From contig OY970192.1 in the NCBI GenBank assembly GCA_963708135.1, positions 3,008,001-3,072,000 of the forward strand: a stretch of DNA of 64,000 nt, read 5' to 3'. Numbering within the stretch: position 1 is the first letter of the stretch; each line of letters opens with the position of its first letter. Below, piece by piece: positions 58,828 through 64,000 of the stretch. This DNA is from an uncultured Gemmatimonadales bacterium. GTDB lineage: Bacteria > Gemmatimonadota > Gemmatimonadetes > Longimicrobiales > RSA9. Both the position numbers and the translations under genes were made by a program. Under the pieces are notes generated by a model, which saw only the letters and a list, made by a program, of their open reading frames with translations, did not search any database and was not told where the DNA came from.

Positions 58828-59859
58828 GTGTACGGCATGGACGCGGAAATCGTTGCTCTCGGAAAGGGACTGCTGGGTGTCCGGTTCGCGTTCGACCGCG
58901 CCGCCGTCGCGGCGGTGCGGGCGATCCCGGGCCGCCGCTGGAACCCGACTGAGGGTCGCTGGACCGTCCCCAACACCCCCGAGAGCAGAGCCCGGCTGGC
59001 TGAGATCTTTCCCGAAAGCGACGACGACGGTTCTCTCCGCGCGCGTCTCCTCCAGGAGCTCCGCATCCGCCGCTACAGCCCGCGCACCATCAAGGCGTAT
59101 CGAAGCCACCTGACCGGATTCGCCCGCCATCTCGGCGGGCGGCCCGGCGAGGCGACGTCGGAGGACGTGCGTGCGTACCTCCTCGCCCTGCAGGCCCGAG
59201 GCGTGTCCGCGGCGTACCAGAACCAGGCCGTCAGCGCGCTGCGCTTCTTCTTCATCCACGTGCTCCGGCGGGAGCTCGATCCGGAGGCCGTGCCCAGGCC
59301 AAAGCGCGACCGGAAGCTGCCGGCGGTACTGAGCGGCGAGGAGATCCGCCGGCTCATCGCCGCGATTCGAAATCCGAAACATCGGGCACTGCTGCTCGTC
59401 ACCTATTCCGCGGGTCTCCGCGTCAGTGAAGCGGTACGCCTGAAACTCATGGATCTGGACGAAGACCGACGAATGATTTACGTTCGCGGAGGCAAGGGCA
59501 GAAAAGATCGGCAGACTCTACTGTCCGACCGCGCGCTCACGGCAGTGCGGGAGGCCCGTAAGTCCGCCGGCTCGAGCCAGTGGCTCTTTCCGGGAGCCCG
59601 CCCCGGCCGCCACCTGACCGCCCGCTCGTTCCAGAAGGTGATCGAGCGCGCGCGCGTCCGCGCCGGCATCGAGAAGCGGTTCTCCGTCCACGCCCTGCGC
59701 CACAGCTTTGCGACGCACCTGCTCGAGGCGGGCACGGACCTCCGCTACATCCAGGAGCTGCTCGGCCACTCGAGCACGCGGACGACCGAAATCTACACGC
59801 ACGTGAGCAAGCGCCAGATCGCCCGGATCCGTAGCCCGCTGGACACGTTGGGGGAGTGA
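58828..59859 (+). CDS. tyrosine recombinase, integron-integrase-like but lacking the IntI insertion; N-terminal HARP-like domain
   Basis: SAM-like YSPRTIKAY..QNQAVSAL; catalytic GLRVSE, GKG, HALRH, LGH and IYTH intact; adjacent to the cassette array. Confidence 0.9.
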   Translation: MYGMDAEIVALGKGLLGVRFAFDRAAVAAVRAIPGRRWNPTEGRWTVPNTPESRARLAEIFPESDDDGSLRARLLQELRIRRYSPRTIKAYRSHLTGFARHLGGRPGEATSEDVRAYLLALQARGVSAAYQNQAVSALRFFFIHVLRRELDPEAVPRPKRDRKLPAVLSGEEIRRLIAAIRNPKHRALLLVTYSAGLRVSEAVRLKLMDLDEDRRMIYVRGGKGRKDRQTLLSDRALTAVREARKSAGSSQWLFPGARPGRHLTARSFQKVIERARVRAGIEKRFSVHALRHSFATHLLEAGTDLRYIQELLGHSSTRTTEIYTHVSKRQIARIRSPLDTLGE

Positions 59860-59929
59860 GCTGCGGGTGGAGGGGGCGCTTGCGGACGCCCTCGCCCACG
59901 AATGGGCGCACAACGGCGCCGAGGACGCC

Positions 59930-59987
59930 GCTTACCGAAATTCGCCAAGTACGCGCCATCACGAAATTCGTAAACTGAACGTTATCT
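59930..59987 (+). promoter_or_regulatory. attI-like primary recombination site
   Basis: TAAACTGAAC|GTTA at the first junction; CGAAATTCG direct repeats at 59936 and 59962; no attC hairpin upstream. Confidence 0.6.
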
Positions 59988-60356
59988 GGAATGCGCTGGA
60001 GCGCTGAACAGCAATGATGTGCTCCGCCGCCCCGCCCCGGTTCCAGCGGCTTTGCGTTCGCGGTGCGATCGACGTCCCCGGCCGGGACGGGTCGGACCGA
60101 CAGGAGCTGGTGAGTCGCCGTGCTTGCGCCGGCTGCGGTTCGGCAGCGAGAGAGATTAGGGGCGTCGCCGTCGACTTTCGACCGTTCCAGGGTTGCACGG
60201 CTTCGGCCGGACAGGAGAGGCGCACTCCAGATAACAGAGCGGTGACCGCTGCGCCGCCTGGGCGGCTTGCCCGCCGGGGGAGCGGTGGCGGCGTTTAGCA
60301 ACACAACATGGGCCGGCGGGACACGGCGCTGCGCGCCGCGTCGGTAACCGCGAAAC
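59981..60356 (+). repeat. ORF-less cassette type A, copy 1 (376 bp)
   Basis: Starts GTTATCTGGAATGCGC; inverse core GCGCACTCCAGATAAC at 60220-60235. Confidence 0.85.
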
Positions 60357-60732
60357 GTTATCTGGAATGCGCTGGAGCGCTGAACAGCAATGATGTGCTC
60401 CGCCGCCCCGCCCCGGTTCCAGCGGCTTTGCGTTCGCGGTGCGATCGACGTCCCCGGCCGGGACGGGTCGGACCGACAGGAGCTGGTGAGTCGCCGTGCT
60501 TGCGCCGGCTGCGGTTCGGCAGCGAGAGAGATTAGGGGCGTCGCCGTCGACTTTCGACCGTTCCAGGGTTGCACGGCTTCGGCCGGACAGGAGAGGCGCA
60601 CTCCAGATAACAGAGCGGTGACCGCTGCGCCGCCTGGGCGGCTTGCCCGCCGGGGGAGCGGTGGCGGCGTTTAGCAACACAACATGGGCCGGCGGGACAC
60701 GGCGCTGCGCGCCGCGTCGGTAACCGCGAAAC
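60357..60732 (+). repeat. ORF-less cassette type A, copy 2 (376 bp)
   Basis: Appears identical to copy 1; inverse core at 60596-60611. Confidence 0.85.
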
Positions 60733-60750
60733 GTTAGAAGACATGCCGGG

Positions 60751-60782
60751 TTGACGGGCGGTGGTACTGAGTACTATAGTAC
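60751..60782 (+). promoter_or_regulatory. sigma70-type TA promoter with palindromic operator
   Basis: TTGACG-N18-TATAGT; palindrome GTACTATAGTAC (60771-60782) over the -10; GGAGG follows. Confidence 0.7.
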
Positions 60783-60818
60783 GGAGGACGTTGAAGCCGG
60801 GAGGCTCGTATCGAATTC

Positions 60819-61139
60819 GTGGCAACCCGCAGCTTCGAGAGCTCCGCGAAGAAGCTCCTGTCCGAAGAGGACCGGAGGCAGCTTGAGTTGCTCCTGCTGG
60901 GAGATCCACGACATGGCAAGGTGATTGAGCGCACTGGCGGTTTCCGGAAGGTGCGCTTCGCTCGACCCAGCCGGCGTGAAGGGAAGAGCGGCGGTACTCG
61001 GGTGATCTACTATCTCCTCGATCGACGTGACCGGATCTACCTGCTCCTCGTGTACGCGAAGGGGGTGAAGGACACCCTCACCCGCACCGAGGAGAACGAA
61101 CTTCGGAAGCTGGCAAAGGCATTGGAGGAAGAACGGTGA
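60819..61139 (+). CDS. RelE/HigB-type toxin (toxin-first order); true start may be upstream
   Basis: GKVIERTGGFRKVRF...GKSGGTRVIYY...LLLVYAK..KDTLT. Confidence 0.85.
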   Translation: MATRSFESSAKKLLSEEDRRQLELLLLGDPRHGKVIERTGGFRKVRFARPSRREGKSGGTRVIYYLLDRRDRIYLLLVYAKGVKDTLTRTEENELRKLAKALEEER

Positions 61140-61516
61140 CCAAGGCACGGAGGAAGGGTACGTTCGGGCAGGTGCTCATCGAGTCCGCAAGAGAGGCGGT
61201 GCAGATCGAGCGCGGTGAGGCACCCCCGGCTCGTGTCACCAAGCACACGGCTGCGGAAACGAGGGTGGCACCTCCGCCTCAATACGTGCCGGAACGTATC
61301 AAGGGAATCCGGGATGTCATGGCATTGTCCCAGCCTGTCTTCGCTGCGGCCTTGAATGTGAGTCCAGAGACAGTCCGCGCTTGGGAACAGGGGAAGAGGG
61401 AACCCGACGGCCCTACGCTTCGACTCCTCAAGGTAGCGGAGCAGCACCCCGAGGTGCTCCTTACAAAAGTGCGGGCCCGAAGGTCGAGGAAACGGCCCAG
61501 CGCCGAGATCCGGTAA
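61136..61516 (+). CDS. HigA-type XRE HTH antitoxin
   Basis: LSQPVFAAALNVSPETVRAWEQGKREPDGP; GTGA overlap with the toxin. Confidence 0.85.
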   Translation: MTKARRKGTFGQVLIESAREAVQIERGEAPPARVTKHTAAETRVAPPPQYVPERIKGIRDVMALSQPVFAAALNVSPETVRAWEQGKREPDGPTLRLLKVAEQHPEVLLTKVRARRSRKRPSAEIR

Positions 61517-61666
61517 CGTGCCTTGGAATGACGCGGTCAGCGTCATGGCCGGCACGTCTTCTAACACACGGTGAGCGCCTGCGCGGCTTCGCTCCGGCCC
61601 TTCGGGACACCGAATCCTCAGCGCCGCGTTGCGGCGCCACCGGTTCGGCGTCGCTCACCTGGAAAC

Positions 61667-62043
61667 GTTATCCGGAATGCGCTGGTGCGCTGGGGAGTGA
61701 ACCTCTTGTTCCCCTCCCCGCCCCGGATCCAGCGGTTTCGCGGGACCGGTGCAATCGATGATCCTGGCACACCGGGTTCGCGAGGCAGCAGCTGGTGAGG
61801 CGCCGGGCGCATCGTTCCTGTATCCGCGGCGTCGAGAGCCCGGCCGGAGTCGAAGCGTTTGTCGGCGCTGAGTTCCGGGCCGCGCCCGCCTTCCGCTGGA
61901 GGCGGAGGGGCGCACTCCGGATAACAGAGCGGTGGCCGCTGCGCCGCCTTCAGCGGCTTGCCCGCCGGGTGAAGTGAAGTCGTAGGCTGAGAACACGGGC
62001 CGGCGGGACGCGGCGCTGGGGGCCGCGTCGGCAACCGCCAGAC
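61667..62043 (+). repeat. ORF-less cassette, divergent type B (377 bp)
   Basis: Starts GTTATCCGGAATGCGC; inverse core GCGCACTCCGGATAAC at 61910-61925. Confidence 0.8.
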
Positions 62044-62420
62044 GTTATCTGGAATGCGCTGGAGCGCTGAACAGCAATGATGTGCTCCGCCGCCCCGCCC
62101 CGGTTCCAGCGGCTTTGCGCTCGCGGTGCGATGGACGTTGACGGGCCGGGATGCGTCAGAGGAGGCAGGAGCTGGTGAGGCGCCGTGCGTCGGCCCGCCG
62201 GTGCGGTTCGGCAGCGGGGCACGTGCAGGTCGCCGGCGGCGAGTTGCGACCGTTCCAGAGTGCACGGCTGTGGCAGGACGCGAGAGGCGCACTGCAGATA
62301 ACGGAGCGGTGACCGCTGCGCCGCCTTCGGCGGCTCGCCCGCCGGGTGAAGTGAAGTCCAAGCCCGAAAAGATGGGCCGGCGGGACACGGCGCTGCGCGC
62401 CACGTCGGTAACCGAGAGAC
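62044..62420 (+). repeat. ORF-less cassette type C, copy 1 (377 bp)
   Basis: 5' part matches type A, remainder diverges; inverse core at 62287-62302. Confidence 0.8.
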
Positions 62421-62797
62421 GTTATCTGGAATGCGCTGGAGCGCTGAACAGCAATGATGTGCTCCGCCGCCCCGCCCCGGTTCCAGCGGCTTTGCGTTCG
62501 CGGTGCGATCGACGTCCCCGGCCGGGACGGGTCGGACCGACAGGAGCTGGTGAGTCGCCGTGCTTGCGCCGGCTGCGGTTCGGCAGCGAGAGAGATTAGG
62601 GGCGTCGCCGTCGAACTTTCGACCGTTCCAGGGTTGCACGGCTTCGGCCGGACAGGAGAGGCGCACTCCAGATAACAGAGCGGTGACCGCTGCGCCGCCT
62701 GGGCGGCTTGCCCGCCGGGGGAGCGGTGGCGGCGTTTAGCAACACAACATGGGCCGGCGGGACACGGCGCTGCGCGCCGCGTCGGTAACCGCGAAAC
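62421..62797 (+). repeat. ORF-less cassette type A, copy 3 (377 bp)
   Basis: Type A with a 1-nt insertion; inverse core at 62661-62676. Confidence 0.85.
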
Positions 62798-63154
62798 GTT
62801 ATCTGGAATGCGCTGGAGCGCCAAACAGCTGATGTGGTCCCCGCCCCGCCCGGTTCCAGCGGCTTTGCGCTCGCGGTGCGATGGACGTTACGGGCCGGGA
62901 TGCGTCCGAGGGGGCAGGAGCTGGTGAGGCGCCGTGCGTCAGCCCCGCCGGTGCGGTTCGGCGGCGGGGCACCTGCAGGTCGCCGGCGGCGAGTTGCGGC
63001 CATTACAGAGTGCACGGCTGTGGCAGGACGGGAGAGGCGCACTCCAGATAACGGAGCGGTGACCGCTGCGCGCTTGGCGGCTGCGCGGGTGAAGTGAAGT
63101 CAAGCGAAACGAGGGGGCGGGACACGGCGCTGCGCGCCGCGTCGGTAACGAAAC
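62798..63154 (+). repeat. ORF-less cassette type C, copy 2 (357 bp, deletions in the attC part)
   Basis: Inverse core at 63037-63052. Confidence 0.75.
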
Positions 63155-63530
63155 GTTATCTGGAATGCGCTGGAGCGCTGAACAGCAATGATGTGCTCCG
63201 CCGCCCCGCCCCGGTTCCAGCGGCTTTGCGTTCGCGGTGCGATCGACGTCCCCGGCCGGGACGGGTCGGACCGACAGGAGCTGGTGAGTCGCCGTGCTTG
63301 CGCCGGCTGCGGTTCGGCAGCGAGAGAGATTAGGGGCGTCGCCGTTGAACTTTCGACCGTTCCAGGGTTGCACGGCTTCGGCCGGACAGGAGAGGCGCAC
63401 TCCAGATAACAGAGCGGTGACCGCTGCGCCGCCTGGGCGGCTTGCCCGCCGGGGGAGCGGTGGCGGCGTTTAGCAACACAACATGGGCCGGCGGGACACG
63501 GCGCTGCGCGCCGCGTCGGTAACCGCGAAA
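63155..63530 (+). repeat. ORF-less cassette type A, copy 4; 3' crossover missing
   Basis: Inverse core at 63395-63410; ends CGCGAAA without CGTTA. Confidence 0.8.
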
Positions 63531-63595
63531 AAACCGCCATGTTCCGCTCGGCCTTTTGTAGCAGATTTGGGGTGATAACGACAAAGGGAGATTCC

Positions 63596-63807
63596 ATGGC
63601 GAGCGTACGATCGAGGAACTGCTGAAGTTGTGTGGGGAGCGAATCCAGCTGGTCGAAGATCTCTGGGATAGCATGCTGGGACGGAGGGATTTCCGCTCTG
63701 AGGCACAGAAGGCCGAGCTGGATCGCCGGTTAGAGGAGCACAGGGCGGATACGGATAGCGGTGCCTGGGAAGAGGTTCGTGAGCGGCTGTACAAGAAGTA
63801 CGGGTGA
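63596..63807 (+). CDS. addiction-module antitoxin component (TIGR02574-like), apparent early frameshift
   Basis: Manual translation ..IEELLKL..ERIQLVEDLWDS..QKAELDRRLEEH..WEEVRERL; ATG out of frame by an indel. Confidence 0.75.
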
Positions 63808-64000
63808 GTAGCGAGTTCGTTGTCCGCCTCAGGCAGAAGCAGAACTAGATGAGGCTGCGGCTTGGTATTCTGAGCGTTCGAGGGGATTGGGAGCAGAGTT
63901 CGTTCGAATAGTCGATGCCGCGTTCGCGGCGATACAGAGAAATCCGCTACAGTTTACAGTTGTACACAGACAAGTGCGGCGGGCGGTGCTTAGAAGATTT
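63804..64000 (+). CDS. ParE/RelE-family toxin, partial, apparent early frameshift
   Basis: Manual translation ..AEAELDEAAAWYSERSRGLGAEFVRIVDAAFAAIQRNPLQF..VRRAVLRRF. Confidence 0.75.

Follow-up and report, generated by a model that had tools for sequence, protein, structure and literature searches.

What does a protein domain otherwise found on replication-fork remodellers do on the recombinase that heads a cassette array? The question is raised by a tyrosine recombinase gene in a 64,000-nucleotide stretch of DNA (positions 3,008,001 to 3,072,000 of contig OY970192.1; hereafter the window) from an uncultured Gemmatimonadales bacterium, the genome of which is complete in one contig of 5.45 Mb. 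An earlier note on this DNA had proposed that about 65 extra residues ahead of the SAM-like core-binding domain of the enzyme resemble a HARP domain, and that they may stand in for the insertion typical of integron integrases (IntI) in recombining hairpin-forming attC sites. Sequence, profile and predicted fold support the resemblance to HARP, and the insertion is indeed missing; the proposed replacement is not borne out, and the reading that we prefer, with a probability of about 55%, is that the domain serves as an accessory module that binds structured DNA and aids the recombination reaction without being essential to it.

This insertion measures about 35 residues, lies near patch III and is given as the defining feature of IntI in the relevant passages of PMC4889954 and PMC9024848. 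Among solved structures, the best sequence relative of the window enzyme is VchIntIA (2a3v, 145.5 bits), followed by archaeal XerA (140.7 and 129.2 bits) and XerD (114.8 bits). The alignment with 2a3v is split (query residues 77-236 to 12-173, and 261-340 to 240-319), so that 24 residues in the query face 66 in 2a3v at the insertion site, i.e. 42 fewer. Positions 179-234 of the IntI model TIGR02249 are left unmatched, the score on this model (216.9 bits) falls below its cut-off of 265, and the K-box is separated from the HxLRH motif by 66 residues as compared with 107-108 in the canonical IntI proteins of this phylum. The absence of the insertion is thereby confirmed. The catalytic set is present (R198, K223, H288, R291, H314, Y323), and NCBIfam NF040815, a model whose name (‘site-specific tyrosine recombinase/integron integrase’) covers both types, is matched with 225.5 bits, just above its cut-off of 220. 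Xer-type simple recombinases (NF040815; XerA 4a8e and 5hxy) possess a two-domain core of equal length and likewise lack the insertion, whereas the window enzyme has in addition the N-terminal HARP-like domain and adjoins a cassette array. Nothing pointing to a dif-type role was noticed, although no search for dif was made. With IntI (TIGR02249; VchIntIA 2a3v) it shares the catalytic residues, the adjacent array, AAC↓GTT junctions, hairpin-forming sites and toxin-antitoxin cassettes; it differs from IntI in lacking the hallmark insertion, in its sub-cut-off TIGR02249 score, in the ~65 added N-terminal residues and in the arrangement of the locus, the gene being co-oriented with the cassettes and the array lying 3' of it. 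Judged by sequence, the recombinase belongs to the integron-like branch despite the absent insertion.

The array begins 122 bp past the recombinase stop codon and, as next to an IntI gene, presents AAC↓GTT junctions and hairpin-forming sites from position 59981 onwards. Within the window, cassettes start at 59981, 60357, 60733, 61667, 62044, 62421, 62798 and 63155; the array then continues beyond the window for at least 12 kb, to a window-equivalent position of ~76460 (genome 3067981-3084460), and is thus at least 16.5 kb long. In the whole genome, the family of attC-like sites is confined to this array and to the + strand. Folded as single-stranded DNA, a representative site reaches z scores of -3.2 (+ strand) and -3.7 (- strand), none of 200 shuffled sequences being as stable on either strand. 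No TIGR02249 match above the cut-off, and hence no canonical IntI, was found in the 5.45-Mb genome, which holds one HARP-like recombinase domain, one such array and further Xer-like genes. The recombinase is the only plausible enzyme for this co-oriented array, which is large and apparently recently active. A recent duplication or re-insertion of cassettes is suggested because four 376-bp cassettes without open reading frames (ORFs), at 59981, 60357, 62421 and 63155, are 99.5-100% identical, while diverged versions of the same 376-bp unit also occur in the array.

As for the extension itself, the earlier note had placed the HARP-like domain at 58828-59020 (residues 1-64) and had quoted a peptide that corresponds to residues 18-48 (nt 58879-58971). 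The reading of about 65 additional residues holds, since 65-69 residues precede the start of the Pfam core-binding match at residue 70. The first start codon is GTG at 58828 and an alternative ATG lies at 58837, which is the start of the identical database entry P0003 (query residues 4-70 align to its residues 1-67); the HARP-like domain lies inside the ORF from either. In an alignment of 35 full-length homologues, which we selected for high query coverage from 120 listed, no sequence departs from W38 or W45, P48 is almost as constant, and a consensus motif spans the whole extension. A hidden Markov model (HMM) of the extension matches 109 of the 121 closest homologues (query counted). Given this conservation, the extension is not a chance open frame.

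HARP (PF07443) is the sole Pfam family matched by residues 1-70 (E 0.3; residues 18-47, profile positions 3-32 of 55). Of the 35 homologues, 18 match it at E<=0.1, the best at 5.8e-4, and it is the only recurrent family besides those of integrases. A phmmer search with residues 1-70 against 1.84 billion representative sequences returned 360 matches at E<=1e-3. We scanned with Pfam 40 of the 150 listed, chosen by length and by number of matched stretches: these comprised 25 SNF2 helicases, 5 short proteins, 5 recombinases or fragments thereof and 5 giant surface proteins, and Pfam HARP was found in 27 of them, namely 22 of the SNF2 helicases and all 5 short proteins. In at least 12 proteins, the stretch matched by the query coincides with the stretch matched by Pfam HARP (e.g. 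P0129, P0130, P0156, P0163 and P0167). Comparison of an N-terminal alignment (A2) with the SNF2-HARP protein P0155 by hhalign gave a probability of 96.6% (E 4.7e-10, 44% identity over 39 columns), and the A2 profile found a single match at E<=10 among 177,635 distinct PDB sequences, the HARP domain of SMARCAL1 (4o66, E 0.0056). The transitive phmmer matches, hhalign and the PDB profile match thus all point to homology with accepted HARP repeats. Apart from recombinases, the domain is closest in sequence to SNF2 helicases of bacteria and phages that carry HARP repeats in tandem (E down to ~1e-12). In these the partner is an ATPase motor, whereas in the window enzyme it is a recombinase; tandem HARP-like copies occur in some recombinases too (P0139, P0140 and P0172, with 3-4 copies in some). 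Of 531 candidates in a homologue search with residues 1-66, none but the entry of the query itself was retrieved; the word index of the search is too coarse for so short a domain, and the search is therefore uninformative on how widely the domain is spread.

The predicted structure leans the same way, at modest scores. In the AlphaFold2 model the extension alone has a mean predicted local distance difference test (pLDDT) score of 82, and residues 11-60 exceed 90 within the whole protein; the topology is strand-strand-helix-strand-strand-helix, i.e. four strands and two helices. A mean pLDDT of 64 was obtained for residues 61-70, a linker region whose length varies among the aligned homologues. 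The best Foldseek match among 350,542 chains, 4o66_A, is weak (E 0.034, probability 0.91, root-mean-square deviation (rmsd) 8.2). With VIA-align, run against 48,161 chains, the N-terminal domain of T4 UvsW ranks first (Z 5.8 and 5.5). Other matches are the C-terminal domain of T4 MotA, which binds duplex DNA (Z 4.7 and 4.2), the archaeal XPB N-terminal domain (Z 4.0) and 4o66 (Z 4.0; 46 residues superposed at rmsd 1.9). In the model, the extension appears to have the same small fold as SMARCAL1 HARP (PF07443; 4o66) and the UvsW N-terminus (1rif, 2oca), and it shares with them a sequence pattern built on a conserved Pro-x-Arg plus two aromatic positions; it differs from them in being joined to a tyrosine recombinase rather than to an SNF2/SF2 motor and in remaining sub-threshold on Pfam. 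The HARP of SMARCAL1 is a fork-DNA-binding module, and the UvsW and XPB domains matched with it are likewise N-terminal modules of fork and repair helicases. The 2014 work of Mason is said to have linked XPB, too, to HARP domains and reportedly treats these domains as DNA-recognition modules. Taking sequence and model together, we regard residues 1 to ~60 as a true member, of a divergent subfamily, of the HARP or substrate-recognition-domain superfamily. In passages of PMC4666394 (citing Mason 2014), SMARCAL1 is described with two HARP domains and UvsW with one, N-terminal in position, and the HARP fold as a five-stranded sheet, as compared with the four strands modelled here.

The combination of a HARP-like domain with an insertion-less recombinase recurs in Bacteroidota, Spirochaetota, Firmicutes, Gemmatimonadota and one archaeal metagenome-assembled genome. 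Among 79 genome loci, 30 were classed as carrying the N-terminal module (by the HMM or by reading the frame upstream), and 20 of these were inspected by eye. Downstream textbook attC-like hairpins (AAC, paired arms, GTT) between co-oriented ORFs were judged to be present in 14 of the 20 (L005, L007, L011, L012, L014, L015, L017, L018, L023, L027, L031, L045, L055 and L070); L002 was plausible and is not counted, and no such hairpins were seen downstream in L001, L013, L022, L026 and L043. The inspected loci include Bacteroidota and Spirochaetota, Firmicutes being represented by the uncounted L002 only. An automated attC finder, based on duplex energy and with thresholds taken from a shuffle set, detected 0.237 sites per kb downstream versus 0.096 upstream of the domain-bearing genes, with a site at 16 of the 25 loci that have at least 900 nt downstream. 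For the remaining loci, a mixed class that includes the canonical-size IntI L076 and L078, the densities were 0.127 downstream and 0.129 upstream, with a site at 17 of 42; five loci (L020, L040, L075, L066 and L079) were left out as truncated or as having another N-terminus. Contigs often end soon after domain-bearing genes: 8 kb upstream together with less than 4.5 kb downstream was recorded for 15 of the 30 domain-bearing loci versus 4 of the 49 others, and the reverse pattern for none of the 30 versus 12 of the 49. The arrays of HARP-type recombinases are probably under-assembled. The contigs of L014 and L045 break off precisely where an attC-like site has its GTT. An association with IS91-type elements was considered for the downstream breaks and was set aside once attC hairpins appeared there.

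A survey of 301 genomes from the phylum of the window adds a second perspective. Canonical IntI above the cut-off was found in 124 of them (a count that includes the three unpublished genomes G097, G182 and G157), most of them members of two families (80 of 125 genomes in one and 48 of 69 in the other), neither of which has a genome with a HARP-type recombinase. The HARP-like module was detected in 10 of the 301 genomes, none of them from these two families: it occurs in 3 of 6 genomes of one family (with the genome of the window not counted), in 4 of 47 of another and in 2 of 23 of a third. Of the 10 modules, 8 belong to recombinase ORFs with the 66-residue spacing. Four genomes (G179, G289, G267 and G086) hold both canonical IntI and the HARP type. 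At E<=1, the module was absent from all 29 canonical IntI loci of the phylum (L166 left out), 15 of which were measurable and have a spacing of 107-108 residues. Within this sample, the insertion and the HARP module are never found together in one protein.

The result that speaks against replacement comes from relatives that have neither. A metagenome scan queried with a HARP-less close homologue (P0074) yielded 80 loci, of which 30 are domain-bearing, 34 HARP-less, 11 unclear and 5 possess another N-terminus. The spacing of 65-68 residues is found in 29 of the 30 domain-bearing and 21 of the 34 HARP-less loci; of the other HARP-less loci, one gave the odd value of 45 and 12 were not measurable. 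Convincing attC-like hairpins were recognized by eye at six HARP-less loci (L112, L115 with three sites, L120, L138, L144 and L159), whereas the finder matches at L152 and L155 were judged unconvincing and those at L114 doubtful; no IntI of canonical size was found on any of these loci. Because HARP-less, insertion-less relatives thus adjoin attC-like hairpins, the insertion-less state does not need a HARP domain. At the domain-bearing metagenome loci, the finder gave 0.326 sites per kb downstream versus 0.095 upstream, with a site at 12 of 19. A further relative, on a Gemmatimonadales contig (L008:2593-2676), has ~13 residues before the core-binding domain, and an attC-like hairpin downstream of it has a 3' core similar to that of the window.

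The presence of the domain was also followed on a FastTree tree of 64 rows built from the core-binding and catalytic parts only, from which 17 of the 80 loci were left out on account of a match start after residue 12, a length below 255 residues or an internal stop. At least 6 changes of state are needed, and branches with good support force 5 of these; with shuffled labels the mean was 18.4 changes, and none of 500 shuffles was as low as the observed value. A clade of 27 rows without any HARP-bearing member (23 HARP-less, 4 unclear) includes array-linked members, and the sister of the window enzyme, L086, is itself HARP-less (support 97). On this tree the domain is clustered, yet it has repeatedly been gained or lost. 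Co-occurrence of domain and array, which the earlier note had put forward as a check, stands in one direction: domain-bearing enzymes head attC-like arrays in several phyla, but HARP-less relatives adjoin attC-like sites as well.

Such a distribution suggests an accessory and optional role, because relatives without domain or insertion also have attC-like sites and because the domain has changed state at least 6 times on the tree. In our preferred reading, the HARP-like domain, tethered by a short flexible linker to a tyrosine recombinase that is otherwise complete and catalytically intact, would help the enzyme to find or hold branched DNA or single-/double-strand junctions. Candidate targets are the base of an attC hairpin once folded, the fork or lagging-strand setting where such folding takes place, and an atypical junction intermediate. 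The domain would raise efficiency or targeting and would be dispensable for the chemistry at attC. Several points weigh against this reading. The Pfam HARP score of the window enzyme is 11.1 bits, short of the gathering score of 25, and the fold scores are modest (Foldseek E 0.034 at rmsd 8.2; VIA-align Z below 6, while the tool itself calls Z below 8 common). The HARP-less metagenome loci show a smaller downstream excess of sites, 0.203 versus 0.13 per kb, with a site at 9 of 22 loci; that the domain contributes to the upkeep of arrays is therefore conceivable. The finder, moreover, is crude: it missed every site of the GC-rich array in the window, and on real DNA it returns a background of ~0.1-0.13 sites per kb upstream, well above the shuffle-calibrated target; calls of attC-like sites by eye are subjective.

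That the domain is a functional substitute for the IntI insertion, recognizing or folding single-stranded attC hairpins and thus providing a convergent route to single-strand recombination, as put forward in the earlier note, would account for the 65-68-residue spacing in all 113 measurable of the 121 closest homologues (109 of them HARP-bearing), for the mutual exclusion of insertion and domain in our sample (0 of 29 canonical IntI loci with the domain) and for the arrays headed by domain-bearing enzymes, and it accords with the occurrence of HARP domains in fork-remodelling enzymes described in passages of PMC4666394. We nonetheless consider it improbable, given the 34 metagenome relatives that have neither domain nor insertion (spacing of 65-68 residues where measurable, the single value of 45 apart), the textbook attC-like hairpins at six of these loci without a canonical-size IntI, the array-linked members of the 27-row clade and the HARP-less sister. 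The domain could instead act as an arm that binds duplex DNA in the attI-like region and sets the direction or site of cassette insertion, as the arms of phage integrases do. An N-terminal, flexibly linked domain present in 1-4 copies in Bacteroidota relatives is typical of accessory DNA-binding arms, the duplex-binding domain of MotA is among the fold neighbours (Z 4.7 and 4.2), and N-terminal arm-binding domains are described, in passages of Smyshlyaev 2021, as an add-on to simple recombinases; since by sequence the domain is related to modules of fork remodellers and not to arm-binding domains, we hold this to be rather unlikely, though worth keeping in view.

The independent lobe that the domain forms on its flexible linker in the model speaks indirectly for a protein-contact module, serving multimer assembly or the recruitment of replisome or repair proteins without binding DNA; the conserved positions include basic residues flanking the two invariant tryptophans, and we hold this reading to be very improbable. 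Finally, the extension might be untranslated, with a downstream start and a frame kept open by chance in GC-rich DNA. Neither start codon is preceded by a clear ribosome-binding site, but protein-level conservation across phyla with W38 and W45 invariant, the presence of the domain in 109 of 121 homologues and the confident fold prediction render this hardly credible. A downstream start, one of the outcomes that would have undone the original proposal, did not materialize, and the extension is taken as translated.

Beyond an accessory role, one may ask whether the insertion-less integron-type branch has recruited HARP to sense DNA that is folded or branched, as a second and independent solution for the recombination of single-stranded hairpins or for fork-coupled cassette shuffling, in which case the domain would mark a large class of integrons missed by IntI-based searches; we entertain this tentatively and lean against it. 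In integron biology, the IntI insertion is seen as what enables recombination of folded single-stranded attC, and search tools define integrons by it, according to passages of PMC4889954 and PMC9024848. Cury 2016 states, in the part concerned, that recombinases near attC without the IntI domain ‘are not IntI’, and in Smyshlyaev 2021, a paper without any mention of HARP, passages on the integron-like subgroup describe the insertion as ‘not fully conserved’. Among the papers searched, we found none on a fusion of a HARP domain to a tyrosine recombinase, although the supplements of these two studies may list such proteins. The window provides, in a complete genome, a big cassette array whose sole adjoining recombinase is insertion-less and carries a domain of the fork-remodeller type. 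If the domain recognizes DNA structure, it offers a simple handle on how insertion-less enzymes treat attC. Should the domain not do so, the array-adjoining relatives without HARP are evidence enough that other routes than the insertion exist. Arrays of insertion-less recombinases are in either case probably under-counted. The coordinates of the locus are compiled in Table 1.

Table 1. Features of the recombinase gene and the adjoining cassette array (positions in the window).
Feature	Position	Strand	Basis
Tyrosine recombinase gene, integron-like/Xer-like, without IntI insertion	58828..59859	+	ORF, 343 residues
HARP-like domain proper, residues 6-60	58843..59007	+	AlphaFold2 topology, Pfam HARP, 4o66, hhalign, fold matches
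Acidic linker, residues 61-66, low model confidence	59008..59025	+	AlphaFold2 model, alignment
Core-binding (SAM-like) domain, residues 67-150	59026..59277	+	Pfam PF13495, E 4.9e-19, residues 70-150; model helices 67-145
Catalytic domain, residues 167-343, without IntI-specific insertion	59326..59856	+	Pfam PF00589, E 3.9e-43, residues 167-328
Non-repeated spacer between stop codon and first crossover, candidate attI-like region	59860..59980	+	Sequence reading; first repeat at GTT 59981
Cassette array, junctions AAAC↓GTTA	59981..64000 and beyond	+	Repeats
Representative attC-like site	60225..60366	+	Inverted AGATAAC / GTTATCT cores in a 13-15-bp stem, internal loop, second stem
Toxin-antitoxin cassette with its own attC-like end	60733..61666	+	RelE-like gene 60819-61139, helix-turn-helix (HTH) antitoxin gene 61136-61516; Pfam, junctions

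At the site spanning 60222-60370, the basal stem comprises 13-15 bp, double the length of the classical 7-bp core, and the cassette that follows contributes the outer half of the stem with its first letters; once freed, a cassette would thus re-form the long stem from its own two ends. The same arrangement bears on site finding. A version of the finder that anchored on complementary 7-mers and aligned the arms was dropped as too insensitive, and it fails because the two cores of one site in an array derive from different cassettes. A version without the 7-mer rule was also too insensitive, folding of every AAC...GTT pair was slow and lost most sites, and blastn self-comparison (word size 11, then 7) detects homogeneous arrays only. 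Rfam gave no match in the window at gathering scores, and the 376-bp units therefore correspond to no known RNA family.

Toxin-antitoxin cassettes are usual in sedentary chromosomal integrons. The site of the toxin-antitoxin cassette in the window folds weakly (z -1.2 and -1.8). The antitoxin of the pair encoded at 60819-61516 is HTH/MqsA-like, and the gene at 63598-63807 encodes an ‘Unstab_antitox’ addiction-module component, making its cassette antitoxin-like.

Among the phmmer matches of the extension, the giant secreted or surface-repeat proteins (P0125, P0133, P0160, P0171 and P0209; 1,716-2,998 residues) have 8-16 matched stretches each, with E values of ~1e-8 to 1e-13; Pfam HARP is absent from all five, and these matches probably reflect composition or repeats. 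Relatives with 2-4 tandem HARP-like modules before the core-binding domain, mostly from Bacteroidota (L006, L011, L015, L023, L024 and L045; P0139, P0140 and P0172), have N-terminal extensions of up to ~350 residues. In the archaeal genome (Undinarchaeales), two HARP-bearing recombinase genes lie in tandem (L003:6448-7590 and L003:7911-9029), each with the 66-residue spacing. Just upstream of HARP-bearing genes of Bacteroidota, a small divergent ORF encodes a Cys-rich, zinc-ribbon-like protein (L017:7502-7885, L018:7456-7839 and L027:7451-7870), which may be a conserved partner or regulator.

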